Assembly: GCA_016235455.1 (NCBI GenBank)
Contig: JACRKZ010000166.1
Location: 845 to 64,844 of the forward strand
Direction: 5' to 3'
DNA from: Armatimonadota bacterium
GTDB lineage: Bacteria > Armatimonadota > UBA10988
DNA: 64,000 nucleotides
A program made the translations under genes and the position numbers. Within the stretch, counting starts at the first letter, position 1. Every line of letters begins with the position of its first letter. Below, in pieces: positions 4,350-37,152 of this stretch. Under the pieces are notes generated by a model. That model ran no database searches, was not told where the DNA came from, and saw nothing but the letters and a program-made list of their open reading frames with translations.

Positions 4350-4515
4350 GACGACCTTATACCAGATCGAGCGTGGCAGCGTGAGCCTTTGGTGGCATCG
4401 GCCGCCGGGCCGGTGGCCGCACCTGACCGCCACGCAAACGACCGGCCGGGACGCCGCGGCCATCATCGTCGGCGCGGCCGTTGACATTGGCCCGCCGGAT
4501 CGCTACCGTCTGCTC

Positions 4516-7683: not shown

Positions 7684-7694
7684 CCTGCCCAAAT

Positions 7695-7728
7695 GATCAA
7701 GGCCGGCCGAAGGTTCGGCCGGCCTTGA
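7695..7728. terminator. perfect GC-rich hairpin (atcaaggccggccgaa gg ttcggccggccttgat) between convergent genes
   Basis: 16-bp perfect inverted repeat directly after stop of 4516..7683 and before stop of the minus-strand gene ending 7750. Weak or no U-tract. Confidence 0.4.
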
Positions 7729-7749
7729 TGCTGACTAGGGTGCCTTGGC

Positions 7750-9075: not shown

Positions 9076-9220
9076 TCCTACTCCTTAGTGGCCCCGCGGA
9101 CGGCGCCGCCTGCGTCGCCCTGTAGCCTGGTCGCCCAAGAACGACCGATTCAATGACTTCGGTGCCATGGTAGCGGTTCCTCTCACAGACCGCAACCCGC
9201 GAACCTTACAGAAGTCGGTG

Positions 9221-11131
9221 CTAGGCGCCCGGCGCGGCTCGGCGCCCGGCGTCGATGACGCCCCGGCGGCGCAACTCGCCCAGCGTCTCGGCGACGAGCG
9301 ACGGCACGTCACGCGAGCCGCTGTCCAGGTGCAGCGCCGGCTGCTCTGGTGCCTCGTACGGCGCCGAGATGCCGGTGAACCCAGGGATCTCGCCGCTGCG
9401 CGCCTTGGCATAGAGCCCCTTGGGGTCGCGCCGTTCGCATTCGGCCAGAGGTGCGTCGACGTAGGCCTCGAGGAAGCGGTCGGCGCCGATGATCTCCCGC
9501 GCGCTGTCACGGTCGGCGCGATAGGGTGAGATGAACGCGGTGATGACGATCAGCCCGGCATCGCAGAACAGCTTGGCCACTTCGGCCAGGCGCCGGATGT
9601 TCTCGGCGCGGTCGGCCGGCGAGAAGCCCAGATCACGGCATAGCCCGTGGCGCAGGTTGTCGCCGTCGAGCACCATGCACGTGTAGCCCAGCGCCACGAG
9701 TTCCTCTTCCAGCGCGTAGGCCACGGTCGACTTGCCGGAGCCGCTGAGGCCGGTCAGCCACAGCGTGGCCGGCTCCTGGCCGAGCAGCGCGGCGCGCTCC
9801 CCGGGGGTCACGCGACCGCGATGGCGGGTGATGTTGCGCGCGGCGCCGCCGCCCGCCACGTGCAGCCGGTCGATGACCATGCCCGCGGCGACGGTGCCAT
9901 TGGTGGTCGGATCGACGAGGATGAAGCTGCCGGTGGCGCGGTTGCGGCTGTACTCATCGCACAGGATCGGTTGGTGCAGGTGCAGCCGCACGCGGCCGAT
10001 CTCGTTCAGCCCCAGCGTGCCCGCCGGCTGGCGATGCAGCGCGTTGGGGTCGATGCGGTACGTGACCTCGCTCACCTCGGCCTTCACCGACCGCGTGGTG
10101 TGCTTGACCAGATAGGGCTGGGCCACGCGCAGCGGCGCCTCGTCCATCCAGACGCAGATGGCTTCGACCTCGCGTGCGGTCCAGGGCAGGTTGCCCGCGC
10201 GCACGATCATGTCGCCCCGCGCGATGTCAATCTCGTCGGCCAGACAGAGCGTCACCGCTTGGGGCCAGAAGGCGTGGTCGACATCGCCCTGCGGCCCGAT
10301 GATGCGCGCCACGCGGCTCCAGCGGCCCGACGGGAGCACCACCACTTCCTCGTCCAGGCGCACCACACCCGAGGCCACCGTCCCGCAGTAGCCGCGGAAC
10401 TCGGCGTTGGGGCGCGAGACATACTGCACGGGGAAGCGGAAATCGATCAGGTTGCCCGTGCCCACCAGCGGCACGCTCTCCAGGTGCCCGAGCAGCGTGG
10501 GCCCGTCGTACCAGGGCATATGCTCGCTGCGGCGCGCCACGTTGTCGCCCAACAGCGCGCTGACGGGGATGAACGTGATGTCGGGACAGCGCAGCTTGGC
10601 CGACCAGGTCAGGTACGCTTCGCGCAGGCGGCAGAACGTGTCCTCCGACCAGTCGACCAGGTCCATCTTGTTGACCGCCACCACCAGGTGCGGGATGCCC
10701 AGCTGGCTGGCGATGAAGCCGTGGCGCTTGCTCTGGGTCAAGACGCCCTGACTGGCGTCCACCAGGATCACCGCCAGATCGGCCGTGGACGAGCCCGTGG
10801 CCATGTTGCGCGTGTACTGCTCGTGGCCCGGCGTGTCGGCGATGATGAAGCGCCGCCGCGGGGTGGAGAAGTGGCGGTAGGCGACGTCGATGGTGATGCG
10901 CTGCTCGCGTTCGGCCTTCAAGCCGTCGGTGACCAAGGCCCAGTCGATCTCCACCTGGCCGTTGCGGGTGGAGGCCGTGCGGACCGCGGCGAGCTGGTCG
11001 TCGTACAGGCCCTGTGCATCGGCCAGCAGCCGCCCGATGAGCGTCGACTTGCCGTCATCGACGCTACCGGCGGTGGCGAATCGCAGCAGGTCGGCGCGCT
11101 GCACCTGAGCTAGCAGGCTGTCCAGGTCCAT
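9221..11131 (-). CDS. cysNC: bifunctional sulfate adenylyltransferase subunit 1 / adenylyl-sulfate kinase (CysN-CysC fusion)
   Basis: ORF 9221..11566. Start re-picked at 'MDLDSLL' (ATG overlapping cysD stop, TGATG). GTP-binding 'GSVDDGKST', 'DTPGHEQY', 'NKMD'. C-terminal APS kinase '[11 protein letters not shown]...[10 protein letters not shown]'. Confidence 0.9.
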
Positions 11132-12090
11132 CAGAAGTAACCCTCGCGCTTCTTCTGCTCCATGGAGGCGTCCTGGTCGTGGTCGATGACGCGCGTGGTG
11201 CGCTCCGACTGCTTGGCTGCCATCATTTCCGCGACGATGGCCTCCAGCGTGTCGGCGGTCGACTCGACCACGCCGGTACACGGATGGCAGCCTAGGGTGC
11301 GGCAGCGGCAGACCACCGGCTCGGGCTGCTCGCCGGGCAGCAGGCGCGTGTCGGCGTAGACCGGGATGAGCTGGCCAGCGCGCCTCACTACCGGTCGCTC
11401 GGCGGCGAAGTAGAGGGGCACCACCTCGATCTGCTCGCGGTGGATGTAGAGCCAGATGTCCAGCTCGGTCCAGTTGGACAGCGGGAAGACGCGGATGGAC
11501 TCGCCCTGGCCCACGCGGCCGTTGTAGAGGTTCCACAGCTCGGGCCGCTGGTTGCGCGGGTCCCACTGGCCGAACCGGTCGCGGAACGAGTAGACCCGCT
11601 CCTTGGCGCGGGAGCGCTCCTCCTCGCGCCGCGCGCCGCCGAAGGCCGCATCGTAGCCACCCGCCGCCAGGGCGTTGAGCAGCGCCTGGGTCTTGAGCTG
11701 CGCGCAGCAGCGCACGGTGCCCAGGTCATAGGGGTTGGCGCCGCCGGCGATGGCCTCCTCGTGGCGATAGACCCGCAGCTCGACGCCCGCCTCGGCGCAC
11801 ACGCGGTCGCGGAAGGCCAGCATCTCGGGGAACTTGAGGCCGGTATCGACATGCAGCAGCGGGAAGGGCACGCGGCCCGGCGCAAAGGCCTTCTGGGCCA
11901 GCCGCAGCATGACCGAGGAGTCTTTGCCGACCGAATAGAGCATCACCGGCCGCTCGAACTCGGCGGCCACCTCGCGCAGGATGTGAATGCTCTCGGCCTC
12001 GAGCTGGTCCAAGGTCGACAGACGCAAGGGTTCGACCAGCACTAGCACGGCTCCTAGGTCAGTACAGGAGTCTAGGACTCGCGCGCGCAA
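11131..12090 (-). CDS. cysD: sulfate adenylyltransferase subunit 2
   Basis: Near full-length colinear similarity to E. coli CysD ('[33 protein letters not shown]', '[21 protein letters not shown]', C-terminal 'KKREGYF'). The true start is probably an internal GTG (~12048) rather than the TTG at 12090. Confidence 0.9.
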
Positions 12091-21758: not shown

Positions 21759-23240
21759 TCACCCGCACCACATTCCAACCACCGTCATCCGCCCACCATC
21801 GACGGTCGGCGCCGCCAGCGTGGTCGGCACCACCGTCGACTGCGCGTCGATCGTGTTCGTCGCCAGCAGGTCGTCATGCCGCAGCACCTCGTGGCTGGCC
21901 GTCGCGAACGCGCCGAACGAGCGCGCGTCGAGGTCGACCGCCAGCGGCTCAGTCAGGCTGCGGTTGACCGCGAACAGCGTCAGGCCGCCCTCGTCGTCGC
22001 GGACGACCGACAGGCCCAGCAGGTCGGCGCCGGCGCGCTCCTTGCAGTCGTACTTGGGGCTGTCGACCAGGGCCCGGAGCACCGTGCCGCGGCCGAGCGT
22101 GGAGGCTTGTTGCAGCGGCCAGAAGATGGGCTGGCGCCAGGCGGGGCCGCCTTTCTGGGTGAGGATGGGCGCGATGACGTTGACCACCTGGGCGATGCAG
22201 CCGATCTTCACGCGGTCGCAGTGGTTGAGCAGCGTGATCAACATGCCGCCGACCACCAGCGCGTCCTCCATGGTGTACTGGTCCTCGAGGATCGGCGGGG
22301 CCAGCTCCCAGTCCTTGATCTTGCGCTTCTCGCGGTCGTTGCTGCTGCGGAACCAGACGTTCCACTCGTCGAACGACAGCATGATGCGCTTGCGGCTGTG
22401 GCGCACGGCGGCCACGTGGTCGGCGGTGCAGACCACCTCGTCGATGAACTCGCCCATGGAATCGGGTTTGGCCAGGAAGCTGGGCGTGTCGCCCTCGCCG
22501 TTGCCGTAGTAGGTGTGGATGGAGACGTAGTCGACATGATCGAAGGTGTGGGTCAGCACCTCGCGTTCCCAGTCGCCGAACGTGGGCATGTGGCGGTGCG
22601 AGCTGCCGCAGGCGATCATTTCGATGCTCGGGTCGGTCCACTTCATCAGCTTAGCGGCCTCGCAGGCCACGCGGCCATACTCCGTGGCGGTCTTGTGGCC
22701 CATCTGCCAGGGGCCGTCGACCTCGTTGCCCAGGCACCACAGCTTCACCCCGTGCGGCTCGGCGTAGCCGTTGGCGCGGCGCAGGTCCGACAGTTCGCTG
22801 CCGCCGGGGTGGTTGCAGTACTCGACCAGCCGGCGCGCGTCCTCGGGTCCGCGGGTGCCCAGGTTGACCGCCAGCATCGGCGCGGTGCCGACCTTGCGAC
22901 ACCAGGCGGCGAACTCGTCGGTGCCGAACAGGTTGGGCTCGGTGCTCTTCCAGGCCAGGTCCAGCCGGCTCGGCCGCTGTTCGCGCGGGCCGATGCCGTC
23001 TTCCCACTGGTAGCCGGAGACGAAGTTGCCGCCGGGATACCGCATGACCGGCATGTCCAGCTCGCGCACCAGCGCCAGCACATCGCCGCGGAAGCCGTCG
23101 GCGTCGGCGGTGGGGTGGTCGGGCTCGTAGATGCCCTCGTAGATGCAGCGGCCCAGGTGCTCGGCGAAGCCACCGAACAGCCGCGGGTCGACGCGGTCGA
23201 TCACGAAGTCGCGGTCAACGGTCACCTTGGCGGTCAGCAT
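21759..23240 (-). CDS. abfA: alpha-L-arabinofuranosidase, GH51
   Basis: Start 'MLTAKVTVDRDFVIDRVDPRLFGGFAEHLGRCIYEGIYEP' matches the AbfA N-terminus. 'WCLGNEVDGPWQ' acid/base. Full-length ~493 aa. Confidence 0.85.
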   Translation of the reverse strand: MLTAKVTVDRDFVIDRVDPRLFGGFAEHLGRCIYEGIYEPDHPTADADGFRGDVLALVRELDMPVMRYPGGNFVSGYQWEDGIGPREQRPSRLDLAWKSTEPNLFGTDEFAAWCRKVGTAPMLAVNLGTRGPEDARRLVEYCNHPGGSELSDLRRANGYAEPHGVKLWCLGNEVDGPWQMGHKTATEYGRVACEAAKLMKWTDPSIEMIACGSSHRHMPTFGDWEREVLTHTFDHVDYVSIHTYYGNGEGDTPSFLAKPDSMGEFIDEVVCTADHVAAVRHSRKRIMLSFDEWNVWFRSSNDREKRKIKDWELAPPILEDQYTMEDALVVGGMLITLLNHCDRVKIGCIAQVVNVIAPILTQKGGPAWRQPIFWPLQQASTLGRGTVLRALVDSPKYDCKERAGADLLGLSVVRDDEGGLTLFAVNRSLTEPLAVDLDARSFGAFATASHEVLRHDDLLATNTIDAQSTVVPTTLAAPTVDGGRMTVVGMWCG

Positions 23241-23387
23241 GTCGGTCTCCCAGCGGCGGAGTATAGCGAATCGCGACCGACGTGGCGACGGGTTGAGCGG
23301 ATAGGTCAACTATTCGCTGCTCGCGCCGCCGATGCGGCCAAAGGGATGCAGCGACCGACACCGTATCTGCCTCTGGAGTAACCTGAG

Positions 23388-25247
23388 ATGGGCGGCGAGC
23401 GGAATGAAGAAGCGCGATGGCCGGGCGACCTGCGCCTCGCGGTCTGTGCGCTCGTGGCCTGGCTCTGGCTCTGGCTACGGGTCGACCCGAGCGGCATGTA
23501 TCACGGCTCGGGCCTGACTCTGCTGCCCACGTACAGCGTCGATCCCGTGTCCCGCGCGGGCCAGTTGGCGCTCATCGGCGGGCCGCTGGGTTACGCTTCG
23601 GCCTGGCTGGCGCAGTGGTTCGTCTGGCCAGCGGCGGGGGCGGGGCTGCTGACGCTCTGCGCACTGGCCGCGGCGTTGGCGGCCGATCGTGCCGCCACCT
23701 GCCTGGCCGGGAAGCGCGTGCCCGGTGTGCGCTACGTGCCGTGGCTGATGTTCCTGTTGGCCGATGGCCAGTACCTCTACCTGCTCGACTGGCAGGCGGG
23801 CTGGGCGGTGGCGCTGGGCGCCGCGGCCACCTACCTGTCATGGTCGCAGCCACGGCCGGCGGTGCGAGCCCTGGTCGGGCTGGCCGCGCTGGCGGCCCTG
23901 TACCGCCTGTTGGGCGGCGCGGCGCTGGTGGCGGTGCCGCTGGCCGCTGTCGGCGAGACGCGCTGGCGCGGGAGGCGTTGGGTGTCGGTAACCGCGGTCG
24001 TCGCGGGTCTGGCCATGCCGTGGGTGGCTTGCCGGCTCGGCTTCGACCAGGCGCCGGCCCAGGCCTACCGCAATCTGCTGCCACTCGCTGCCTTCAACGA
24101 CCAGTTCGGCATCGCCCGAGCCATCGGCTTGGGCATGTTGGCCTTCGGCGTGCTGGCCGGCGCGCTGGCGGTCAGCACCGCGACTCAAGCGCGGCGGGCA
24201 CCGCGGCCGGCGGTGGCTTGGGCTGGTGTCAGCGCCATGCTGCTGCTGGTGCTCGTCGGCTTTCGCGACGGGTCGCAGGCGGTGAGCCTCGATCTCTGCC
24301 GCCGGGCCGCGGACGGCGACTGGGCCGGGTTGCTGGCCTCCTCCCAGCGGTTGGAGCCGCTGACTCGGACCTGCTGGGAGGACGCCAACATTCTGCTGGC
24401 GCTGGCGCATACCGGGCAGGTGGGCGACCAGCTCCTCGCGCGCGGCGTGCGCACGCTGGCCTTCCTGCGCGACGCGCCCGTCTTCGGCGACCAGGTGGCG
24501 GTCACGCGCATGAGGGGCCAAGGCGGGCTTCAGTTGCGTGATCTGATGCTCGACCTCGGCCTGGTGAACCACGCCGAGCACGACAACGAGGAGGCGCTGG
24601 AGACTCAGGGCATCTACGCGCCGGTGGCGGTGTCGATGGCGCGCATCCAGGTGCTCCAGGGCCGGCCGGAGACCGCGCGTGTGCTGCTGCGCCTGGCCGC
24701 CGCGCAGCCGGGCGATCCGGCTGGCGCCGGTCGACTGCTGCACGCCCTGCGCGGCGACCCCAGCCTGGCGGGCGACCCCGCGCAGGTGGCGCTGAGTCAG
24801 AACCGGCTGCACACCGACCTGTACCGGGCCGCGCAGCTCCTGCCGGTGCTGGAGCAAGCGACGATCGAACACCCCGAGAACCGCCTCGCCTGGGAGTACC
24901 TGATGGCCGCCTGCCTGCTGTTCAATGAGGTGCCGCGGTTGGTGGCCGCGTTGCCTCGGATGACGGCCTATGGCCGCACGGCGCTGCCCCGGCACTGCGA
25001 GGAGGCTGTGCTCTGTCACGAACTGCTCACGGGCCGGCCGGCCGAACTGGGCCGCTGGTCGGTGCGGCCGGAGGCGCGGGCGCGGTTCGCTGCGTTCGGT
25101 CAGGCGCTCGGCGGCGCCGACAGCGTGGCGGACGCACTGTGGCAGCCGAACCACCCCAAGCCCAACGCGGCGCGCGTCTGGCAGGGGGCGTGGACCGATA
25201 CCTACTACTACTATCGCCTGTTTGGCATGTCGGGGGCGGTGCGATGA
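23388..25247 (+). CDS. polytopic integral membrane protein (>=10 TM) with C-terminal soluble helical domain; function unknown
   Basis: Hydrophobic helices throughout residues 20-300. Stop overlaps the next gene's start (ATGA). Confidence 0.5.
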   Translation: MGGERNEEARWPGDLRLAVCALVAWLWLWLRVDPSGMYHGSGLTLLPTYSVDPVSRAGQLALIGGPLGYASAWLAQWFVWPAAGAGLLTLCALAAALAADRAATCLAGKRVPGVRYVPWLMFLLADGQYLYLLDWQAGWAVALGAAATYLSWSQPRPAVRALVGLAALAALYRLLGGAALVAVPLAAVGETRWRGRRWVSVTAVVAGLAMPWVACRLGFDQAPAQAYRNLLPLAAFNDQFGIARAIGLGMLAFGVLAGALAVSTATQARRAPRPAVAWAGVSAMLLLVLVGFRDGSQAVSLDLCRRAADGDWAGLLASSQRLEPLTRTCWEDANILLALAHTGQVGDQLLARGVRTLAFLRDAPVFGDQVAVTRMRGQGGLQLRDLMLDLGLVNHAEHDNEEALETQGIYAPVAVSMARIQVLQGRPETARVLLRLAAAQPGDPAGAGRLLHALRGDPSLAGDPAQVALSQNRLHTDLYRAAQLLPVLEQATIEHPENRLAWEYLMAACLLFNEVPRLVAALPRMTAYGRTALPRHCEEAVLCHELLTGRPAELGRWSVRPEARARFAAFGQALGGADSVADALWQPNHPKPNAARVWQGAWTDTYYYYRLFGMSGAVR

Positions 25248-26761
25248 CCCGACGACGATGGCTGGTCCTGGCTGGCGTGGCCGTGGCACTGGCGGCGGCC
25301 ATCGCCACCCGCCTGCCGGGCCCGAGGCCCAGCGGTCAAGTGGCTCAGGAAGCTGCGGCGCCGCGGCTGTGGCCAGCGCTCGACGGCGTCGTGCTGCCGC
25401 CGAACATCGCGCCGCCCGGCCTGCGCATCGACGAGCCGGGCACAGCCTGGCACGTGCTGGTCAAGGGCGAGCGTGGCGCTGCGGTGCAGGCCTCGGGCAC
25501 GCGGCCCGGACTGAGCCTGCCCCTGCGCGGGTGGCGCCGCCTGCTGGCGGCCAATGCCGGCGGCCAGTTGGCGCTGGTCGTCAGCGCGCGCCGGGCGGCA
25601 GGCGGCTGGACGCGGTACGCGCCGGTGGCGCTGAGCGTGGCTCGCGAGCCGATCGACCGTTACCTGGTCTACCGCATGTTGCCGCCGGCCTACAGCCTGG
25701 TCTCCGATACGGGTATCTACGAGCGCGACCTGACCAGCTACCGGCAGCGTCTGGTGGTCCACGGTCGCCAGGTGAACGGCTGCGTCAACTGCCACACGTT
25801 CTGGCAGGGCTCGGGCCGGCGCTTCACGCTGGGCACCCGCAGCGACACCTGGGGCAACCGGACGCTGCTGGCCAACGGCGGCAAAGTGGTCTCGCTCGCG
25901 CAGCCTGTGGGCTTCGGCACGTGGCACCCCGACGGCAAGATGGTGACCTTCTCGGCCAACAAGGTGGTGCAGTTCTTCCACACGGCCGGCAACGAGACGC
26001 GTGAGGTGATGGACATGCACGGCGCGCTGGCCTGCTTCGACATCGCGCAACAGCGCTTCGTCAGCAGCCCCGAGCTGTCTCAGCCCGAATACCTGAACAG
26101 CTATCCGTGCTGGGCACCGGATGGCCGCACACTCTACTTCGTCCGCGCGCGCCGGCCGTGGGGGCCCGGTGAGCCCTATCCGCCGAAGCAGTATGACCAG
26201 GTGCGCTACGACCTGGCGCGCATCAGCTACGACCCGGCGACGAGCACCTGGGGCCATGTCGAGACGCTGCGTTCGGGCCGGGCGGCGGGCCGCAGCTTCG
26301 TCTTCCCGCGCGTCTCGCCCGATGGACGCTGGTTGCTCTACACATCGTGCGAGTTCGGCTGCTTCCCCGCCTTCAAGGCGTCAGCCGACCTGGGTCTGAT
26401 CGACCTGCGCACCGGACGCGACCAGCCGGTCGAGGTCAACAGTGACCGGTCGGAGAGCTGGCACACCTGGTCACGCAACGGTCGCTGGGTCGTGTTCTCC
26501 AGCAAGCGCGCCGACGGCCTGCTCACCAAGCTCTACCTGGCCTACTTCGATGCCGACGGCCGGATGCATCCGCCGTTGCTGCTGCCCCAACGCCGAGCCG
26601 ACTACTACGACCGGCTGTACCACAACTACAACGTGCCCGAGTTGGTCGAATCGCCGGTGGCGGCCTCCGCTGGTCAGCTCGGTCGGGCCGGTCGTGAGCC
26701 GACGCAGGTCAAGGCCAAACTGCCAGACGGTGTCGGACCCGCGGCAGTCACCGCGCAGTGA
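25244..26761 (+). CDS. secreted TolB/PD40-like beta-propeller protein carrying one CxxCH haem-c motif
   Basis: ORF 25139..26761, start 'MTRRRWLVLAGVAVALAAAIA'. 'GCVNCHTF' CxxCH. PD40 repeats 'WAPDGRTLYFV', 'SPDGRWLLYTS', 'WSRNGRWVVFSS'. Confidence 0.6.
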   Translation: MTRRRWLVLAGVAVALAAAIATRLPGPRPSGQVAQEAAAPRLWPALDGVVLPPNIAPPGLRIDEPGTAWHVLVKGERGAAVQASGTRPGLSLPLRGWRRLLAANAGGQLALVVSARRAAGGWTRYAPVALSVAREPIDRYLVYRMLPPAYSLVSDTGIYERDLTSYRQRLVVHGRQVNGCVNCHTFWQGSGRRFTLGTRSDTWGNRTLLANGGKVVSLAQPVGFGTWHPDGKMVTFSANKVVQFFHTAGNETREVMDMHGALACFDIAQQRFVSSPELSQPEYLNSYPCWAPDGRTLYFVRARRPWGPGEPYPPKQYDQVRYDLARISYDPATSTWGHVETLRSGRAAGRSFVFPRVSPDGRWLLYTSCEFGCFPAFKASADLGLIDLRTGRDQPVEVNSDRSESWHTWSRNGRWVVFSSKRADGLLTKLYLAYFDADGRMHPPLLLPQRRADYYDRLYHNYNVPELVESPVAASAGQLGRAGREPTQVKAKLPDGVGPAAVTAQ

Positions 26762-26879
26762 CCGCCGGCTTGGCGCCGCGGGTGGCGCTCCTGCCGGCAG
26801 GCGACCTCGGTAGGCGCGCGCCAGACGCCATGGAGAGTCGCCCTCGGCCGCCCTCCAGGGTGTCTGGCGCTAGCCGAGG

Positions 26880-28166
26880 CTACGGATACAGCGCCATCAA
26901 CGCATCCGCGAACAGCTTCATGCCGTGCGGATCCGGATGGTTGATGGCGTTGGACAGCAGCGTCGAGTAGGGGATGCCCTGGCGCCACAACCTGCCCCAG
27001 CGCAATGACGCGTCGGCCAGGGCGATGTTGTGCTTGGCGGCGAAGGCGCGCAGCCCGGCCACGTAGGGACGCGGGTCGGCATCGATGTCGCGTTCGCGGT
27101 CGAGCCCCATCCAGTCGCCGCGCACGTAGTGCGGCGTGATGATGATCCACTCGGCGCCGATGCCCTGGAAGTCTCCGAGCAGCTTGGTGTACTTGGTCTC
27201 CACCACCTCGGGCGTCATGTAAGCGTCGTTGACGAACTCGGAGACGATCAGGTCAGGCTTGCAGCCCAGCACCTTCTCGGCGTAGTTCCACTGGCTGCCG
27301 GCCGGCTCGCCCAGGAAGCTGTCGGTGTTGCGACCGCCCCAGCCCAGGTTGATCAGCTCGATGTTGGCCTTTGGGAAGCGCTCTTTGAGGCGCGTGACGA
27401 ACTGCGCCTGCCAGCGCTGCGTGGCCGGATTGGGCAGGTAGCCCGCGTCGGTGACGCTGTCGCCCCAGGCCAGAATGCGGATCTTCTCGCCCGACTGCAG
27501 CTTGGCCAGGCTCTTGGGCGTGAGCTTCTCGGCGATGCTCGGCGTGGGCTTGGCGGCCTCGGGGTAGGCCGCCTCGAGCACGGGCAGGATGCTGGCGGGC
27601 ACCAGCCTTTCGGCGCGGCCGGGCACCCAGATGTTGACCACGCGGGTTTCGCCCTCGCCCAGCGGTGTCTGCTGCGGCAGCGACTGGTGCGGCTGACCGA
27701 TGCGGTAGGCTGGCCGGCCGTCGCGGGCGATGACCACGCTGTCGATGCGGCCCATGCCATGACGGTAGCTCATCCACACCGGCTTGCCGTCGGGCCAGCC
27801 ATCGGCCAGGCGGCCCACGGTGCCCCAGTCCAGGTCGGCTTCGTAGTCCTTGCCCTTGACCAGCGCCGGCGCGTCGGGCGTTGGCCCACCGCGCAGCACG
27901 AGCGTGTCCGGGAACAGGTAGGTGCGCGCGGAGCACTCGTCGGACTTGATGCCGCGCAGCACGACGCCCTTGCACCAACCGCCGGCGCCAGGGTTGAAGA
28001 CTGGCAGCGAATCGTACTTCTCGCCGGTCACCACGGCGCCCGAGGCGACCGGCACGGTGTAGGTGTAGGTGGCCTCGCCCGCGACCACGCGGATGGACCA
28101 GTCACCCACGACTTCGACGTTGGGCGCGGCCAACAGGGCCAAGGCAGGCAGACAGAACAGCGTCAT
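26880..28166 (-). CDS. SGNH/GDSL-family hydrolase (carbohydrate esterase-like) with N-terminal beta-rich domain
   Basis: ORF 26880..28247, start at 'MTLFCLPALALLAAP'. 'ILAWGDSVTDAGY' (GDS block), 'GWGGRNTD'. Confidence 0.75.
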   Translation of the reverse strand: MTLFCLPALALLAAPNVEVVGDWSIRVVAGEATYTYTVPVASGAVVTGEKYDSLPVFNPGAGGWCKGVVLRGIKSDECSARTYLFPDTLVLRGGPTPDAPALVKGKDYEADLDWGTVGRLADGWPDGKPVWMSYRHGMGRIDSVVIARDGRPAYRIGQPHQSLPQQTPLGEGETRVVNIWVPGRAERLVPASILPVLEAAYPEAAKPTPSIAEKLTPKSLAKLQSGEKIRILAWGDSVTDAGYLPNPATQRWQAQFVTRLKERFPKANIELINLGWGGRNTDSFLGEPAGSQWNYAEKVLGCKPDLIVSEFVNDAYMTPEVVETKYTKLLGDFQGIGAEWIIITPHYVRGDWMGLDRERDIDADPRPYVAGLRAFAAKHNIALADASLRWGRLWRQGIPYSTLLSNAINHPDPHGMKLFADALMALYP

Positions 28167-30318: not shown

Positions 30319-33087
30319 TTATTGCGCGTCGCGGCAGACGGTCGCGTCCGGCACCGCGCCGGGCATGTCGTCCCGCGGCTTGACGGCCAGTTGCTGCCGT
30401 ACCGGCGCGAACACGGCCAGGATGGCCTGATAGTCCGGGTCACTGGTGCCCGCGAAGACTGCCTGACCGCACTTGCCGCTGCCGCCCTGGGCTTTGGCCA
30501 GCGGCGCGGCAGCGAAGCCGTTGAGTTCGGGCCGGTCGAGCCGGGTCCATACCGGCCGCGGCAGCGACTGCGCATGGCACGAGGCGCAGCGCCGCTGGCG
30601 TACGTCGGCCAGCACCTTGTCGAGCCCAGCGGGATAGATGCGGCGGCAGCCGACGGCCAGCGGGTAGGCGGTCTCGCTGGTGCCGTAGTAGGGCACGTTG
30701 AGGTCGATCCAGCTCAGGATGCGTTGCCGCTCGCCGGCCTCGAGCTTCACCCGGGCCTGGCCGTCGGCGCCGGCATGGCCGCCGATGACGATGTCGGCCA
30801 GCCGGCTGCGCGGCGAGCCCCAGGCGCGCGGCGTGATCTCCAGGATGTTGGCCTCCTGGCCGTTGTAGGTGGGGATCCACGACGTGTATGGGTTGTCCAG
30901 CTCGCCCTCGCCGATGGACCGTCTCCCGCGCGCCAGCGTCTCATACGAGACGTTGAAGAAGTCGGTCTTGTCGCCGGCCAGATCGACCCCGCCCGCGGGC
31001 GCCACGCCGTCATGGCAACTCACACAATGCCGGTCCAGCACCGGCTGCACCACCGACGCGTAGTCGAAGCCGACGCCTTGGCCCCAGTCGGGAGGCGTGA
31101 GCGCCGCGGGAGGCGAGGCCAGCGCCGACGGTCGACGTGGCGGCGTGGTCGTCGTGCGCTGCTCGTGACAGCCGACGCAACCTTGCGTCTCGCCCGGCAT
31201 GAGGTGGGTGAAGGTCCTCATGCGCTGGACGGCACGGCCTTCGGCGTCGAGCGCCATGAAGTAGATGGGTACGCCCGCGGGCACCTGGAAGTGCGCCGAG
31301 CCGTCGTCGGCCACGGGTGCGAAGCCCCAGACCTTCTTGCCCGCGTAGGTTGCGCCGCAGGAGATCACCGGGAACTGGAACCCGAAGGCGCGGTTGGCCA
31401 CGTCGGTGCGGACCGGCTTCTCCATCTCCTGCACCACGGCGATGCGCTTCACCTCGCCGCGCTTCACCACTGGCTCCAACCCGCGATAGACGTCCTCGAC
31501 GAACATCGTGGCCCACCCGCCCACGCCCGCCGACGCTGGTTCTGACAACTTCGTGGCGATGGCCGGCACCGCCCGCGCTCGCACCGGCGCGGCGTTGTGG
31601 AAGCCCATGCCGTCGCGCGGCGCGACCACCTCGGCTTCGCTGGTGCGGGCATAGTCGCGCAGCAGCACGGTGCCATCGCGCGACACCAGGTACCACTGGT
31701 CGTCGAGCGGGTAGGGTGTGGCATAGGGCCCGCGGATGTGGTTGCCGCTGCCCTGGTCGACCTTGCCGGCATCGATCTCGGGCGTGAGGTTGGTCAGCGC
31801 GGCCTGGGTGTTGTCGCCGTAGCCACGGTCGATCAGCCCGATGGCGCCGCGAGCCGGGCCGTTGTGCGCGGTCAGCGTGCACAACACCTTGGTGCTGCCG
31901 GGCACCGCGCGAGCTTCCATGATGGTGGCGGGACTGAGCACGCGATTGCCCCAGAATCCGGCCAGACCCGTGCCGTCGGGACTGATGGTCCACAGGCTCT
32001 GGATGGGGATGGCCGGCCGGTCGACGTATTCCCACCGGGAGTAGATGATACGCCCGTCGTTCAGCACGCTCGGCGTGAAGTCGTTGACCAGATTGGCGCT
32101 CAGCCGACGCGCATCGCTGCCGTCGGCGTTCATCCTGAACAGCAGGCCGACGGGCGACACCCAGCAGTAAGCGAACCGGGCCGCGCGCGTGGACAGGAAG
32201 GCGATGCCGCCATCCGGCAGCCAGCAGCCGTTGTAGTCATGCCAGCGGCCGGTGGTCAGTTGCCGGAGTCCGGTGCCGTCGGCGGCGACGGTCCACAGGT
32301 GATAGCCCTGGTCGGTGGCCTGGCGCCAACTGAAGAGGATGGTCCGCGCGTCGGGCGAGACGTCGCAGTCGAGGATCTGCCCCGCGCCGGCGTCGACCAG
32401 CCGTGTCATCGCACCGTCGGGCTCGCGCCGCCACAGGCCGCCGCCGGCCCGGAAGCCCTCGGTGTGGTAGGTGTAGACGTGGCTGGAATCGATGGGGTAG
32501 CGCTGCACCATGACCAGCGGGTCGAGCTTGACCGGGAGTTCGGCCAGCGCCTTGACATCGAGCGTCGACTCGCCGGGCAGCGAGCGCTTGGGCGCCGGCG
32601 TGGCAAAGACCATGATCTCCGATGCGCCGGGGTTGGAGCCGCCATAGGAGCTGCCAAAGACGAAACGGAGCGACTTGGTGACCACTGGCTGGGCCAGCGT
32701 GATCCGCTGCGGGTCGCTGCGCTGCCGGAACTGGCCTGCAGCCAGTTCCTTACTGTCCGCGTCGAGCAGCCGATAGCCCTGCCAGGCTTCGGCCATCTCC
32801 CAGGCGTTGCGCGCGTAGTAGACCACCTCGGCCACGGTGACCGGCTCGGGCCAGGTCAGTGTGAACTCGGCGCCCTGCCGATGCGTGCTCCCGTTGACCG
32901 CCCAGGCCCGGCCGACGTCGTCGTGCGAGCCCGCGCCGGGAATGACGCCGTCGATGGCGCGGTCGGCGCCGTAGGTGTCGTTGAACGCCGACGTGGCGGT
33001 CGCCGTGGCGTGACGAGCCAGGTTCTCGGGCATCTCGGCGGCGGTCAGGCCGCCGAGCGACAGCAGGCAAGCGATCAATGCGCGCAT
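30319..33087 (-). CDS. paralog 2 of discoidin / PD40-propeller / multi-haem c-type cytochrome protein (three CxxCH: GCVGCHE, CVSCHD, RCASCHA)
   Basis: ORF 30319..33510, start at 'MRALIACLLSLGGLTAAE'. Colinear with 4516..7683 ('GETQGCVGCHEQRT...HCVSCHDG...SWIDLNVPYYG'). Confidence 0.7.
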   Translation of the reverse strand: MRALIACLLSLGGLTAAEMPENLARHATATATSAFNDTYGADRAIDGVIPGAGSHDDVGRAWAVNGSTHRQGAEFTLTWPEPVTVAEVVYYARNAWEMAEAWQGYRLLDADSKELAAGQFRQRSDPQRITLAQPVVTKSLRFVFGSSYGGSNPGASEIMVFATPAPKRSLPGESTLDVKALAELPVKLDPLVMVQRYPIDSSHVYTYHTEGFRAGGGLWRREPDGAMTRLVDAGAGQILDCDVSPDARTILFSWRQATDQGYHLWTVAADGTGLRQLTTGRWHDYNGCWLPDGGIAFLSTRAARFAYCWVSPVGLLFRMNADGSDARRLSANLVNDFTPSVLNDGRIIYSRWEYVDRPAIPIQSLWTISPDGTGLAGFWGNRVLSPATIMEARAVPGSTKVLCTLTAHNGPARGAIGLIDRGYGDNTQAALTNLTPEIDAGKVDQGSGNHIRGPYATPYPLDDQWYLVSRDGTVLLRDYARTSEAEVVAPRDGMGFHNAAPVRARAVPAIATKLSEPASAGVGGWATMFVEDVYRGLEPVVKRGEVKRIAVVQEMEKPVRTDVANRAFGFQFPVISCGATYAGKKVWGFAPVADDGSAHFQVPAGVPIYFMALDAEGRAVQRMRTFTHLMPGETQGCVGCHEQRTTTTPPRRPSALASPPAALTPPDWGQGVGFDYASVVQPVLDRHCVSCHDGVAPAGGVDLAGDKTDFFNVSYETLARGRRSIGEGELDNPYTSWIPTYNGQEANILEITPRAWGSPRSRLADIVIGGHAGADGQARVKLEAGERQRILSWIDLNVPYYGTSETAYPLAVGCRRIYPAGLDKVLADVRQRRCASCHAQSLPRPVWTRLDRPELNGFAAAPLAKAQGGSGKCGQAVFAGTSDPDYQAILAVFAPVRQQLAVKPRDDMPGAVPDATVCRDAQ

Positions 33088-33136
33088 GAGGGTGTCCTCA
33101 GACGAGAGTGTGGCAGAGCGCGGTGGCAGACGCAAG

Positions 33137-35590
33137 CTACTTGCCGGCAATGCGCCGTATTGCTTCCACTTCGGCCGGGTCAAACGCTGTCCCATCGGCC
33201 CGCAGCAGGTCGTGATGCCAGACCTTGGGCGCCGGGTCACCGGGCTTGGAGCCCCACGGCATGTAGGTCTGCGTGCGCCCGGCGACCAAGCCCCAGCAGT
33301 AGCTGCCCACCTGCTTCTCCCGCAGCAGTGCCAGATCCGTGGCCCAGCGACTGCCCAGCACACGCGACATCCATTCGGTGCAGAGCAACGGCCGGCCCTG
33401 TGCGGCGAACTCATCGATGGCCGACCGCAGGGCCTGGACGTCGCCGTAACGGTGGAAGGAGACCACGTCCGACAAGGCCAGCATGGTCCTGGCGCAGCCC
33501 GCGGGGCCACCCCACGGCCCGGCGGTCAACGGCTGGCTCGGCGCGGCGGCGCGGGCCCAGCCGAAGGTCGCGGCCAAGAAGGGTTCGCTGCCATCGCCAT
33601 GCGCGCAGTTGCCCGGCTCGTTGTACAGGTCCCAGGCGACAATACGCGGGTCGTCGGCGTGGGTGCCTACCAGATCCTTGACAAACGCCTCGGGCCCCGC
33701 CCATCGGGTCCTGTCGGCGACGATCCCGTGGCCGGGGCTGGGCACCCAGCCGCTGTTGTGGACCCCAGTCACGGGGTCGGGCTGCGGGCCGACGCTCGGC
33801 TCTCGCCCGGCGAACGCGCAGTCGTCGAACAGCACGGGCATCACGCTCTGGCCATGCTTCGCGGCGAGTGCCAGGAAAGCCTCGAAGCGCGCGCGGAAGC
33901 CAGCGGGGTCGTCGGCCCACACCACGTAGTTGAGGAACACGCGCAGCGAGTTGAAGCCCAGACCTTGGGCCCAGCCGAGTTCGCGGTCCATGGTGGGCTG
34001 ATCGAAGGTGGCGGCCTGCCACATCTCGACATCGTTCACGGCGCTGGATGGCAGGTAGTTGCAGCCGACCAGCCAGCCCGCGCGCGCCGACCACTGCGCG
34101 GCGCGTTCCGTTGTCCACCGCGTCGCGGGCAGCGGCTCGGCGGCCACCAACTGCACGTAGGCATCGGTCGCATCGGCCCGCTTGTCGCCGGTCACGCTAA
34201 CCACGAGCTCATGCTGGCCAGGGGCCAGCCCGGTCAGCCGGTGACGCTGGTTCCAGGCCACGGTGGGGCCAAAGGTGTCCAGCGGAGGCAGATCGCGGCC
34301 GTCGAGCGCGAGGCCGGCGATGCCGCAGTCCGGGCCGGACTTGTGCACCAGAGCCAGGCCGGTTCCCGCAAACCTGATCCTGGCTGTGCCACCGGCCTCG
34401 CGGCAGAAATGCAGCGCGCCACCCAACGGGCCGCTGCCTGTCCAGCGTGTCCAGCCGTCGCCGAAGGCGATGCCGGCGTCGTCGTGCGCGGGCAGGCCAG
34501 GCCTGGTCTGCATCTGGCGGTAGTCGCGGTGGGCGAAGTCGAGCGCGGTGTCGTGCGTCAGCGCTCGAATGGCCGTGTGCTCCGCCGGGTCGTACGGTTG
34601 ACCATCACGGTGGTACAGGTCGTGAAACCAGACGGCGGGTTGCGGGGCGCCGCGCTTGCTCGACCAGCCGAACTGGCATTGGGTGCGGCCGTTGACCAGG
34701 CCCCAACTCAGGCAACCGACACCTTCGTCGCGCAGCAGCGACAGGTCGGTCGACCAGACGCTGCCGAGGGGCCTCGCCATCCATTCGGTGCAGACCACCG
34801 GCCGGCCGTGGCGCTTGAAGCGCTCGATGGCCGAACGCAGGCCGTCGCGGTTGCCGTAACAGTGAAAGCTGACGATGTCCGACAGCTCGATCTGCCGCTG
34901 GCTGAGGGCGGCCGACGCACCCCATGGCCCCATGGTCAACGGCTGGCTTGGCCGCGACTCGCGTGCCCAGGTGAAGGTGGCCTCAACCAGGGGCAGGCTG
35001 CGGTCACCCAGGCCGCTGTTGCCCGGCTCGTTGTACAGGTCCCACAGCACGACGCGGGGGTCCTGGCCGAAGCGGCCGACCATGGCCCGCACGTACTTCT
35101 CGAGGTCGGGCCAGGCGCCGCGGTCCTCGACGGCGCGGAGGCCAGGACTCGGTGTCCAGCTCGGCAGGATCATGCCGGGGACAGGTTCGCGTTGCGGGCC
35201 GAGGTGGGGCTCGGTGACCGGTGGGTCGCCAAAGCTGCAGTCGTCGAACAGCACGGGCATGACACGGATGTGGTGCCGGTTGGCTATTGCCAGAAACTGG
35301 TCGAAGCGCCGCTCGGTGCCAGCCGGGTCATCGTGCCACACCAGGTACTGCACAAACACCCGCACAACATTGAAGCCGAGCGTCTGCGCCCAGCCCAGCT
35401 CGCGGTCGATGGTCACGGCGTCGAAGGTGGCAGCCGACCAGAATTCGGTCGTGTTGGCCGCGCTCGAAGGCACGTAGTTGCAGCCCACCAGCCACGGCTG
35501 CGCGCGATACCACTCCCAGGCGCGTTCGGCCGGCCAGGTGGTCGGACCAGCCAGCAGGCTGGACATGATCAGGGGCACGGCGGGGGTCAT
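33137..35590 (-). CDS. secreted protein with two tandem GH5-like (clan GH-A) catalytic modules, each followed by a beta-sandwich domain
   Basis: Internal duplication: 'AERAWEWYRAQPWLVGCNYVPSSAAN...WDLYNEPGNSG...VVCTEWMARP' and 'TERAAQWSARAGWLVGCNYLPSSAVN...WDLYNEPGNCA...LLCTEWMSRV'. Confidence 0.75.
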   Translation of the reverse strand: MTPAVPLIMSSLLAGPTTWPAERAWEWYRAQPWLVGCNYVPSSAANTTEFWSAATFDAVTIDRELGWAQTLGFNVVRVFVQYLVWHDDPAGTERRFDQFLAIANRHHIRVMPVLFDDCSFGDPPVTEPHLGPQREPVPGMILPSWTPSPGLRAVEDRGAWPDLEKYVRAMVGRFGQDPRVVLWDLYNEPGNSGLGDRSLPLVEATFTWARESRPSQPLTMGPWGASAALSQRQIELSDIVSFHCYGNRDGLRSAIERFKRHGRPVVCTEWMARPLGSVWSTDLSLLRDEGVGCLSWGLVNGRTQCQFGWSSKRGAPQPAVWFHDLYHRDGQPYDPAEHTAIRALTHDTALDFAHRDYRQMQTRPGLPAHDDAGIAFGDGWTRWTGSGPLGGALHFCREAGGTARIRFAGTGLALVHKSGPDCGIAGLALDGRDLPPLDTFGPTVAWNQRHRLTGLAPGQHELVVSVTGDKRADATDAYVQLVAAEPLPATRWTTERAAQWSARAGWLVGCNYLPSSAVNDVEMWQAATFDQPTMDRELGWAQGLGFNSLRVFLNYVVWADDPAGFRARFEAFLALAAKHGQSVMPVLFDDCAFAGREPSVGPQPDPVTGVHNSGWVPSPGHGIVADRTRWAGPEAFVKDLVGTHADDPRIVAWDLYNEPGNCAHGDGSEPFLAATFGWARAAAPSQPLTAGPWGGPAGCARTMLALSDVVSFHRYGDVQALRSAIDEFAAQGRPLLCTEWMSRVLGSRWATDLALLREKQVGSYCWGLVAGRTQTYMPWGSKPGDPAPKVWHHDLLRADGTAFDPAEVEAIRRIAGK

Positions 35591-35697
35591 GGCGGCGGCT
35601 CCATTGCGCTGCCAGTTCGAGCGCGGGCGCGCGCCTCCTTCACGCTTGACGCCACGCCCCTCCTTGCCTAGAGTTGAGGGTGTCAGGGAGGTCAGCC

Positions 35698-37152
35698 ATG
35701 GTCAGGCGTACCGCTGTGCTGGTGGTTGGAGGTCTGCTGCTGCTCGGCGCGGCCCGGGCACAGGTGGTGTTCCCGCAGTTCGCCTTCCCGGCCAAAGTCG
35801 CGGGCGGGCATATCGTCTTCAGTCGCCTGATGCCCGTCAAACTGGCGGCTGGGGGGCTCACGGCCGACACCATCGTCTCCAAGCTGTTCGTCATGAACGG
35901 CGACGGCACGAACCCGCAGCCGTTCCTGGTCACGGCCGACCTGACCCAGTTCAAGGAGCCGCGCTGGTCGCCGCAGTTCGACCGGCTGGCCTTCAGCTCC
36001 AACTTCGCCAGCTCGCGCTCGGCCTGCATGACCGACATTTTCGAGGCACGAGCCGGCGGCGTGGTGCGTCGCGTGACCGGCAACGACCTGGTCGGCGCCG
36101 CGCCCATCGGCTATGGGTCGGTGGTCGGCCGCGTTGACCCGCAGTTCAAGGACGACCCCACGGCTGTGCATAAGGGCGGCGAGATCAGCGTCACCGCCCA
36201 GGGCATGGACGGCGCGGTGGTGCATCCGTCGCTGACCGACAACAGCTTCACGCTGCCCCGCGTCGCCGCGGGCGACACGGTGTGGGTCAAGGTCTGGGTC
36301 ACGGAGCGGCTGGGCACGCTGACCATGATCAAGGTGCGCCCCGGCGAGGTCACCAACATCGGCACGGTCAAGCTCAACGAGGGCACGTTCACCGCCTCCA
36401 AGCCCAGCCTCTCGGTGGGCGGGCAGCATGTGGTCGGCATGGGCGGGCTGACTCAGGTGGCGTTGACCGACAACCCCATCGGCGGGGTGATCGGCGAGAC
36501 GGTGCCGGGCTTCCAGGCGGGCAAGCAGAAGACGATCAGCGGCGCCGAGAGCATTTGTGTCTACGAAGGCCGCACCGGCGCGCTGCTGGGCAGTATCGAC
36601 CTGGGCAAGCTGGGCTACGAGCAGGCCAAGGAACCGGCGCTGTCGCCAGACGGCACGGCCATCGCGTGCGCCTGGGGCAAGATGACGCAGGAGAACCTGG
36701 CGCTGGTGCCCGTGGCCAGCGTGCTGGCCAATGCTCCCGCGCCGAAGGTGCTGGTGCCGGGCCAGATGCTCATGTTCCAGCCCGGTGCGCCGATGATCGG
36801 CTGTGGCGGGCCGGTCTGGTCGCCCGACGGCAAGCGCCTCGCCTTCACCCGCACCATCGTCATCGGCGATGGTACGGTCAGCGCGGGCATCTGGGTGGTC
36901 AACGTCGACGGCTCCGGCCTGAAGGAAGTGGCCGCCCAAGGGCTTGAACACCTGTGCTGTCAGCCCTGCTTCTCGCCTGATGGCACGAAGCTGGCGTTCA
37001 CGGCGCTGACCGGCCGGCGGGGCCCGCTGAAGGTCGAGCAGCTCATCGCATCGCAGTTTGGTCTGGACATCTTCAGCGTGGATCTGGCCTCGGGCAAGCA
37101 GACGCGGCTCACGCAGGATGGCGCGAGCTGCGAGCCGGCCTGGGGGCCGTAG
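35698..37152 (+). CDS. secreted TolB/PD40-like beta-propeller repeat protein
   Basis: ATG 35698 after 'agggaggt'. Signal 'MVRRTAVLVVGGLLLLGAARAQ'. 'WSPQFDRLAFSSN', 'WSPDGKRLAFT', 'FSPDGTKLAFTA'. Confidence 0.6.
   Translation: MVRRTAVLVVGGLLLLGAARAQVVFPQFAFPAKVAGGHIVFSRLMPVKLAAGGLTADTIVSKLFVMNGDGTNPQPFLVTADLTQFKEPRWSPQFDRLAFSSNFASSRSACMTDIFEARAGGVVRRVTGNDLVGAAPIGYGSVVGRVDPQFKDDPTAVHKGGEISVTAQGMDGAVVHPSLTDNSFTLPRVAAGDTVWVKVWVTERLGTLTMIKVRPGEVTNIGTVKLNEGTFTASKPSLSVGGQHVVGMGGLTQVALTDNPIGGVIGETVPGFQAGKQKTISGAESICVYEGRTGALLGSIDLGKLGYEQAKEPALSPDGTAIACAWGKMTQENLALVPVASVLANAPAPKVLVPGQMLMFQPGAPMIGCGGPVWSPDGKRLAFTRTIVIGDGTVSAGIWVVNVDGSGLKEVAAQGLEHLCCQPCFSPDGTKLAFTALTGRRGPLKVEQLIASQFGLDIFSVDLASGKQTRLTQDGASCEPAWGP

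Follow-up and report, generated by a model that had tools for sequence, protein, structure and literature searches.

Two adjoining genes of an Armatimonadota metagenome-assembled genome (MAG), at present named "hypothetical protein" and "PD40 domain-containing protein," belong to a gene pair conserved across about ten phyla. The first (gene A) encodes a polytopic membrane protein of the family DUF6057; the second (gene B) encodes a TolB/PD40-type six-bladed propeller, apparently exported, with a single CxxCH motif as a candidate attachment site for haem c. On balance we favor the view that the two proteins form a self-contained cell-envelope complex of approximately 1:1 composition, in which a TPR arm of protein A would hold the mono-haem propeller at the cytoplasmic membrane. 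There is no description of the A-B pair in the literature searched, which likewise has no mention of DUF6057; on haem propellers of the PD40 or TolB-like kind it yielded nothing relevant.

The gene pair and its junction

The window (the whole stretch of DNA analyzed) is 64 kb long, and both genes are on its + strand. Gene A (23388..25247) begins with an ATG and encodes 619 amino acids; a Shine-Dalgarno-like GGAG (23375..23378, + strand) ends 9 nt upstream. Gene B (25244..26761), read from the ATG at 25244, encodes 505 amino acids. As the first-pass annotation had noticed, the two overlap by the sequence ATGA (25244..25247, + strand), made up of the gene B start codon (ATG, 25244-25246) and the gene A stop codon (TGA, 25245-25247). 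Within the 3′ end of gene A, 7 nt upstream of the gene B start, is a purine-rich GGGGG (25232..25236, + strand), which may serve as ribosome-binding site in the coupled translation of gene B. The NCBI annotation of the source MAG has the same two proteins, of 619 and 505 amino acids, under consecutive accessions (MBI5835260 and MBI5835261), the first of them identical to the gene A product. Look-ups by exact sequence returned no record for the gene B product or for the B protein of a second A-B pair in this MAG. An Rfam scan of positions 23000-27000 gave no match above threshold, and a scan for promoters and terminators found none of the latter and a single promoter-like site, on the opposite strand.

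Conservation of the pair

The expectation that the same pairing would recur in other genomes was confirmed: a homologue of A adjoins B in 76 of 79 loci. The idea of a coupled gene unit also stands, and the 4-bp overlap itself is kept across phyla. Of 61 same-strand junctions in which B follows A, 45 have a 4-bp overlap (ATGA or GTGA) and five more a 1-bp overlap. In some loci the order is B then A, or the genes are divergent, so the adjacency survives rearrangement. In an A variant fused to a MacB-like periplasmic domain, B is still the next gene and the ATGA overlap is kept. Motif (see below), pairing, and overlap are thus all more than chance.

Paired loci were found in Planctomycetota, Armatimonadota, Verrucomicrobiota, Lentisphaerota, Latescibacterota, Chitinivibrionales, Riflebacteria, Anaerolineales, and Aegiribacteria, and the B family was confirmed at 402 or more places in species-representative genomes. 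The carriers are known here solely from MAGs, from sediments, groundwater, and digesters.

The two families have diverged together. Distance matrices for A and B are correlated (Mantel test, r = 0.47, p = 0.001), and for 38 of 67 pairs A and B have the same nearest neighbor. Where one genome has paralogous pairs, these are old, with A copies 28-37% and B copies 48-51% identical; one locus (L015) has three pairs in tandem, and the MAG from which the window comes has a second A-B pair. By all-against-all clustering of neighboring ORFs, A and B alone are conserved. No electron donor or acceptor genes are conserved near the B loci, and any redox role would therefore be one without a visible partner.

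The propeller protein (B)

Protein B has exactly one CxxCH, in the sequence GCVNCHTF (nt 25778-25801, aa 179-186). The first-pass annotation was right that there is a single haem-c motif, but not in placing it near the N-terminus: it follows a beta-sandwich of ~100 amino acids, at the entry to the propeller. The N-terminus proper (aa 1-21, 25244..25306, + strand; MTRRRWLVLAGVAVALAAAIA) is a predicted signal peptide or membrane anchor, modeled by AlphaFold2 as a helix at aa 2-21. The beta-sandwich domain (approximately aa 33-135, 25340..25648, + strand) was delimited from AlphaFold2 secondary structure and conservation; in it the motif IPPNIAP is conserved, and W97 and W122 are invariant. The propeller (approximately aa 140-470, 25661..26653, + strand) is recognizable both by PD40 repeats above threshold and by its six-bladed fold, predicted with high confidence; R144, R161, R199, and H246, around the motif, are invariant.

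The candidate covalent attachment site is CVNCH (aa 180-184, 25781..25795, + strand). As anticipated, the motif is kept among orthologs: C-x-N-C-H is present in all 119 database homologues and in all 84 homologues found in genomes (203/203 sequences, 35-63% identity), with C180, N182, C183, and H184 invariant. With the predicted hydrophobic N-terminal signal or anchor, protein B has both the conserved motif and the export expected of a c-type cytochrome, and it most likely binds one covalent haem c at C-V-N-C-H. Export is most likely through Sec. A lipobox-like Cys is found at the N-terminus in 28 of 119 homologues, and across the family the signal is mostly not of the twin-arginine type, with no conserved twin-arginine motif. 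The B of the window begins MTRRRW; Tat export with a cytoplasmically loaded cofactor was considered and rejected as a family trait, because many homologues are without any Arg pair.

Protein B matched no cytochrome fold in structure comparisons and no cytochrome Pfam family. The best PDB sequence matches to the motif region, all sub-threshold, were to the c-type cytochromes OmcS (E 0.035), OmcE (0.22), and cytochrome c2 (0.6), each aligned at its haem motif. In the AlphaFold2 model, built without haem, G179-F186 is a beta-strand; if this strand is regular, Cys180 and Cys183 would be on opposite faces, which would be unusual for haem attachment. There are precedents for haem proteins on beta folds: in cytochrome cd1 nitrite reductase, haem chemistry takes place on or beside a beta-propeller, and in cytochrome f a c-haem, with the motif C-A-N-C-H, is bound directly to a beta-rich fold.

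The possibility that B is an ortholog of TolB was rejected, with a TIGR02800 score of 25.9 bits against a cut-off of 343 and no tol or pal genes conserved nearby. The N-terminal domain of TolB is alpha/beta, whereas that of B is a beta-sandwich; B carries the invariant CxxCH; and the conserved neighbor of B is DUF6057, not tolQRA or pal.

The membrane protein (A)

The match of protein A to Pfam DUF6057 (PF19529) is full-length (E 1.3e-49; 170 bits, cut-off 29.8), with residues 60-612 aligned to model positions 49-568 of 569. An exhaustive search of representatives found at least 1707 clusters of relatives (50% identity) at E<=1e-3. The sequence is Ala/Leu-rich. The AlphaFold2 model (pLDDT 91.3) predicts, with high confidence, a helical membrane domain at aa 11-291 (23418..24260, + strand) and an alpha-solenoid at aa 292-619 (24261..25244, + strand). 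With the DUF6057 match, this bears out the earlier description of the protein as polytopic.

The membrane domain, with approximately 7-9 helices, has no match among solved structures in the PDB. It is the less conserved half of the protein and has few conserved polar residues; its conserved features include a periplasm-facing P-G-G…Y…Q segment and Glu190. In an alignment of 98 sequences, there is no conserved His or Cys in this domain, with highest column frequencies of 0.50 and 0.56, respectively. The C-terminal domain, the most conserved part of A, consists of repeated helix-turn-helix units and resembles known TPR domains. From the distribution of K/R-rich loops, it is probably outside the cytoplasm, in the periplasm. 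At two positions that are nearly invariant in the family, protein A of the window differs from the consensus, with Q for K424 and S for R470.

Two functional assignments for A were tried and rejected. It has none of the conserved ligands, CxxCH motifs, or family matches of a NapC/NrfH-type quinol dehydrogenase or a cytochrome b, and nothing in it points to a path for electrons through the membrane or out of it. The combination of a polytopic domain with TPR is also known from GT-C glycosyltransferases (compare TMTC and PMT-like enzymes), but comparison with solved structures gave A no GT-C membrane fold, and neither the end of the first helix nor the first external loop has an invariant acidic residue.

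Possible function(s) of the pair

The preferred reading is that A and B are two subunits of a cell-envelope module, produced in roughly equal amounts. Protein A would sit in the cytoplasmic membrane by its helical domain, with the TPR-like solenoid of ~330 residues projecting into the periplasm. Protein B would stay membrane-bound, in this organism by an uncleaved anchor and in roughly one relative in four by a lipid anchor, and would fold as a beta-sandwich followed by a TolB-type six-bladed propeller, with haem c at the start of the second blade. Arg144, Arg161, Arg199, and His246, which are near the motif in sequence and strand order, could be partners of this haem, for its propionates and in axial or distal positions. 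B would be held by the TPR arm; the haem-propeller may be the working head, as a catalytic site or a site for binding a small ligand, and A its membrane platform, chaperone, or activator. Counting against this reading are the strand in which the model places the motif, the missing cytochrome fold or family match in B, the absence of a conserved redox partner nearby, the two departures of the window's A from its consensus, and the size of the A membrane domain, which is large for a simple anchor. A partial parallel is the ActH-LytH system of Staphylococcus aureus, in which a polytopic protein binds and activates a membrane-anchored enzyme by way of an extracytoplasmic TPR domain. ActH has no sequence relationship to A, however, and its membrane domain is rhomboid-like; its partner is an amidase, whereas the putative partner of A is a propeller with a haem motif.

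The first-pass annotation had seen in the pair a minimal, membrane-anchored version of a propeller-cytochrome theme, and a possible electron entry or exit point for larger paralogs. Three larger CxxCH proteins are indeed encoded in the window (4102-7683 on the + strand; 30319-33510 and 58738-61689 on the – strand), and all three match HZS_alpha (PF18582, E 1e-19 to 1e-24). In hydrazine synthase alpha, a six-bladed PD40-type propeller goes with c-type haem motifs that are not part of a classical cytochrome fold (PMC12758564). The HzsA-related proteins are like B in being exported and in combining a six-bladed PD40-type propeller with a c-type haem motif outside a cytochrome fold, but the domain order is reversed, with the haem motifs after the propeller. 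In protein B there is no match to PF18582, and BLAST of B against the three HzsA-related proteins gave none either; by hhalign, B and the HzsA-like profiles align with 58% probability over 77 columns, corresponding to two generic PD40 blades, with the CxxCH sites unaligned. B was therefore rejected as a paralogue of these proteins, and the minimal propeller-cytochrome description is not supported. An HzsA-like neighbor was found in only one of 79 B loci, and a multihaem ORF of any kind within 7 kb in only three others. In the exceptional locus, from Lentisphaerae (L007), the B homologue starts 9 bp past an HzsA-related gene, which stands in the place of A. A second apparent "membrane protein + PD40" pair in the window, at 33086-37152, was rejected, its 861-aa ORF being a shadow ORF of Arg/Gly/Ala-rich nonsense; the PD40 protein within that interval is without CxxCH. 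A role of the pair in carrying electrons from the membrane or the quinone pool to the larger HzsA-related propeller-cytochromes, or back, would be compatible with their presence in the same window, with the arrangement at L007, and with the probable haem on B. It is nevertheless very improbable given the rarity of such neighbors and the limits of the similarity; A moreover matches no quinol-oxidizing family, in its membrane domain no His, Cys, or Met is conserved that could bind haem b or another redox center, and one haem on a large propeller would make a poor electron wire. The proposed module would work alone, and not be wired to the HzsA-related cytochromes of the window.

Other readings keep the association of A and B and change its meaning. 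Protein A might be a dedicated maturation or assembly factor, holding unfolded apo-B for haem attachment or folding and not remaining as a stable partner. CcmI and NrfG, TPR chaperones of apocytochromes, offer a possible precedent: such chaperones resemble A in having a membrane-anchored periplasmic TPR domain and a genetic link to a c-type cytochrome. Such a role would fit the conservation of A, which is centered on the solenoid, the strict adjacency of the two genes, and their co-divergence, and the unusual, non-cytochrome context of the haem site in B might call for a special chaperone. But A has 7-9 helices where CcmI/NrfG-type proteins have 1-2, shows no match to their families or, above noise, to any other cytochrome biogenesis family, is without the conserved His and the Trp-rich motifs that mark haem-handling membrane proteins (CcmF or CcsA, for example), and is not encoded with haem lyase genes. 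The conserved ATGA coupling, moreover, suggests equimolar synthesis, which would be wasteful for a catalytic assembly factor, and we regard this role as unlikely. We would give about the same low credence to the idea that the CxxCH binds a metal or forms a disulfide within a TolB-like envelope scaffold, with the pair as a structural or mechanical envelope module comparable, perhaps, to TolB and the TPR protein CpoB or to FtsEX-type partners. Both cysteines and the following His are strictly invariant, which for an exported protein marks haem c, and we know of no conserved non-haem use of this exact motif in the periplasm; B, as its TIGR02800 score indicates, is not TolB, and ABC ATPase genes are no more conserved nearby than are tol or pal. 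Finally, A could conceivably transport or flip a substrate of the membrane or envelope, for example a lipid-linked or hydrophobic one, with B as its periplasmic substrate-binding or processing partner. The large polytopic domain with its P-G-G…Y…Q segment and Glu190, the MacB-domain fusions, and, at 18 of 79 loci, a nearby SGNH-like/TPR protein are in keeping with this, and several diverged pairs per genome would fit differing substrate specificities. Among solved structures, however, no transporter fold is similar to the membrane domain, which is the less conserved half of A and has few conserved polar residues; with no energizing component conserved nearby, this reading seems very unlikely.

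Significance

Two anonymous annotations can now be replaced by a defined two-gene module with a clear anatomy, a predicted cofactor, and a predicted partner, and a tempting but unsupported tie to the HzsA-related cytochromes has been removed. The genomes that carry it, from Planctomycetota, Verrucomicrobiota, Armatimonadota, and related lineages, are rich in CxxCH proteins that have no explanation. Should the haem prove real, the pair would join a propeller of the TolB type, bearing a c-haem but no cytochrome domain, to a membrane protein with a fold that matches no solved structure. It is conceivable, if somewhat short of probable, that it represents an undescribed class of envelope machine, present in some ten phyla or more, a single genome often having several diverged copies: a c-haem on a TolB-type propeller blade, serving as a new periplasmic haem enzyme or ligand sensor, that would work only 1:1 with a membrane protein of new fold gripping it through a TPR arm.

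A Conserved Two-Gene Unit

Gene A (23388-25247, + strand), encoding a 619-aa DUF6057 membrane protein, has an ATG start with GGAG 9 nt upstream. Gene B (25244-26761, + strand), encoding an exported PD40/TolB-like propeller of 505 aa when read from the ATG at 25244, follows directly, with a run of GGGGG 7 nt upstream of its ATG. The ATGA overlap reported in the first-pass annotation is confirmed at 25244-25247, where B's ATG lies over A's TGA. The products are identical to MBI5835260 (NCBI "hypothetical protein," locus tag HZB16_23380) and MBI5835261 (NCBI "PD40 domain-containing protein"), which are consecutive in one Armatimonadota metagenome-assembled genome. At the ~70% G+C of the window long spurious ORFs are common; despite this, A and B are real genes. 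The long ORFs overlapping them (23838-25289 and 25211-26257, - strand; 23417-24541 and 24970-26004, + strand) are shadow ORFs resulting from the base composition, and antisense ORFs over B cluster in 62 loci solely because B itself is conserved. The upstream neighbor (a GH51-type arabinofuranosidase) and the downstream one (a GDSL hydrolase) are both on the opposite strand, so A-B is a free-standing two-gene unit.

The pairing extends to other genomes, one of two points on which the first-pass annotation's idea would otherwise have been refuted: among the best 79 loci retained from at least 402 B relatives confirmed in a scan of GTDB species genomes, 76 have an A homologue directly adjoining B. 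Gene order is mostly A then B, with B then A in ~10 loci and divergent genes in three. Same-strand A-then-B junctions have a 4-bp ATGA/GTGA overlap in 45 of 61 cases, and a 1-bp overlap in five others. Their hosts belong to Planctomycetota (Pirellulales, Phycisphaerae, Sedimentisphaerales, Brocadiaceae), Armatimonadota, Verrucomicrobiota, Lentisphaerae, Latescibacterota, Chitinivibrionales, Riflebacteria, Anaerolineales, and Aegiribacteria. Clustering of all neighboring ORFs across loci gave no conserved neighbor besides A and B.

Distance matrices for A and B co-diverge (Mantel r = 0.47, p = 0.001), with the same nearest neighbor in 38 of 67 pairs; mean identity across phyla is 31% for A and 49% for B. 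There are several old A-B copies per genome. Tandem arrays of two to three diverged pairs occur at four loci (L013, L015, L052, L053), with three pairs at L015 3450-15491; within arrays the A copies are 28-37% identical and the B copies 48-51%. The unit was duplicated whole and then retained. A second pair (MBI5835215, MBI5835216) is encoded in the window's host genome, which, by accession arithmetic, probably also has a third B.

Some DUF6057 variants of ~1280-1350 aa (P0166, P0192, P0209, P0228) have a MacB-like periplasmic core domain fused N-terminally. At L080, such a fusion (5723-9562) is followed by B (9559-11103) with an ATGA overlap, and L081 is the same. The fused proteins have no FtsX Pfam match, their permease part being degenerate, and no ABC ATPase gene adjoins them.

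Other genes recur near the pair at some loci. A ~390-aa FkbO/Hyg5-like chorismatase with a RidA (L-PSP) domain, usually on the same strand just downstream of B, adjoins the pair in 13 of the best 79 loci (L001, L013, L019, L023, L031, L036, L040, L042, L056, L064, L070, L076, L079) and also in L080/L081 and L083; at L080, chorismate synthase and EPSP synthase genes come after it. Either a functional link or shared inheritance of gene order could explain this. A ~730-aa protein, with a membrane helix at its N-terminus, an SGNH/GDSL-like region, and TPR repeats at its C-terminus, is found near the pair, in variable orientation, in 18 of the 79 (e.g., L041 8684-10873, + strand). At L066, one of the three loci without A beside B, a 514-aa ORF (4478-6022), a transposase by eye reading, is located between succinate dehydrogenase/fumarate reductase-like ORFs a short way upstream of B. 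If it is a transposase, A may have been lost there through rearrangement.

Protein Architecture

The Pfam family DUF6057 covers the entire A protein (170 bits; cut-off 29.8). An AlphaFold2 model built with 98 relatives is confident (pLDDT 91.3, pTM 0.92), and divides A into a helical membrane domain (aa 11-291), a fold without a solved relative, and an alpha-solenoid (aa 292-619). Lys/Arg-rich loops found family-wide (aa 108-115, 152-158, 190-198, 267-274) would, by the positive-inside rule, place the C-terminal solenoid in the periplasm. The best-conserved residues are all in the solenoid (N394, E397, E402, N498, E503, E539, Y609), and the family alignment shows no conserved His or Cys in the membrane domain. 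Armatimonadota members form a divergent branch of the family; in the window's A, positions 424 and 470 are Gln and Ser, where Lys and Arg are found in >90% of the family.

B consists of an N-terminal hydrophobic helix (replaced by a lipobox-like Cys in 28 of 119 relatives), a ~100-aa beta-sandwich, and a six-bladed PD40 propeller. Its single CxxCH (GCVNCHTF, nt 25778-25801) was originally described as near the N-terminus, but at aa 179-186 it is about a third of the way along, in the first strand of the second blade. Its conservation among relatives, the other such point, is complete: C180, N182, C183, and H184 are invariant in 119 aligned database relatives (35-63% identity) and present in 84 of 84 relatives from species-representative genomes. 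R144, R161, R199, and H246 are likewise invariant.

Possible Functions

B rather probably carries haem, since the three residues that define a CxxCH site show no variation at all and the protein is exported, and since the B family has no conserved twin-arginine signal. Sub-threshold PDB sequence matches to the motif region are exclusively c-type cytochromes, aligned at their haem motifs. Against this, the model puts the motif in a beta-strand, and no cytochrome fold or family match was found for B. High conservation (relative to A) and the invariant Arg and His give B the appearance of an enzyme or ligand site rather than of a scaffold.

The pair had also been suggested to be an electron entry or exit point for larger paralogs, with B as their minimal version. 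The candidates are three HzsA-related proteins (HZS_alpha, PF18582) at 4102-7683 (+), 30319-33510 (-), and 58738-61689 (-), each with a carbohydrate-binding-like N-terminal domain (DUF7402/F5_F8_type_C, or PL4 CBM-like), a PD40 propeller, an HZS_alpha domain, and, beyond the propeller, two to three CxxCH motifs. The combination of domains may point to redox chemistry acting on glycans; the genes are scattered among glycoside-hydrolase-type genes. B is not a reduced form of these proteins: BLAST gave no match between them, hhalign aligned two generic PD40 blades alone (probability 58%), and the haem motifs are on opposite sides of the propeller. A lacks anything able to carry electrons, leaving the entry/exit idea unsupported, and the lack of a conserved redox partner speaks against a dedicated electron-transfer chain. 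The sole link found between the families is a Lentisphaerae locus (L007) where an HzsA-related gene (4035-6944, +) takes A's usual position, 9 bp before a B homologue (6953-8527, +), with no DUF6057 gene; it is an exception rather than a pattern.

Elsewhere in the window, a secreted PD40 protein without CxxCH is encoded at 35674-37152 (+). A second membrane-plus-propeller pair was considered there and rejected, the 861-aa ORF at 33086-35671 (+) being an Arg/Gly/Ala-rich shadow ORF. A fused CysN/CysC-type sulfate adenylyltransferase GTPase subunit and APS kinase (9221-11566, -) is unrelated to the pair.

The evidence supports A and B as the two subunits of one module, produced in nearly equal quantities. 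In this reading, A would provide a membrane platform whose TPR arm lies in the periplasm, and B would be a membrane-tethered propeller, most likely with one covalently bound haem c. Coupling, co-divergence, and the conserved TPR surface suggest that the two bind physically, for which ActH-LytH is an architectural precedent. The literature searched has no mention of DUF6057 and nothing on haem-bearing TolB-like propellers; both families are already in Pfam, but only as a DUF and a generic repeat. The chance that the module will turn out to be a haem-propeller machine of a distinct class is put at somewhat below even. The window's pair is a typical representative of the module, itself undescribed, which joins known ideas, haem c carried by a beta fold and a polytopic TPR protein paired with a partner in the periplasm, in a form not previously described.
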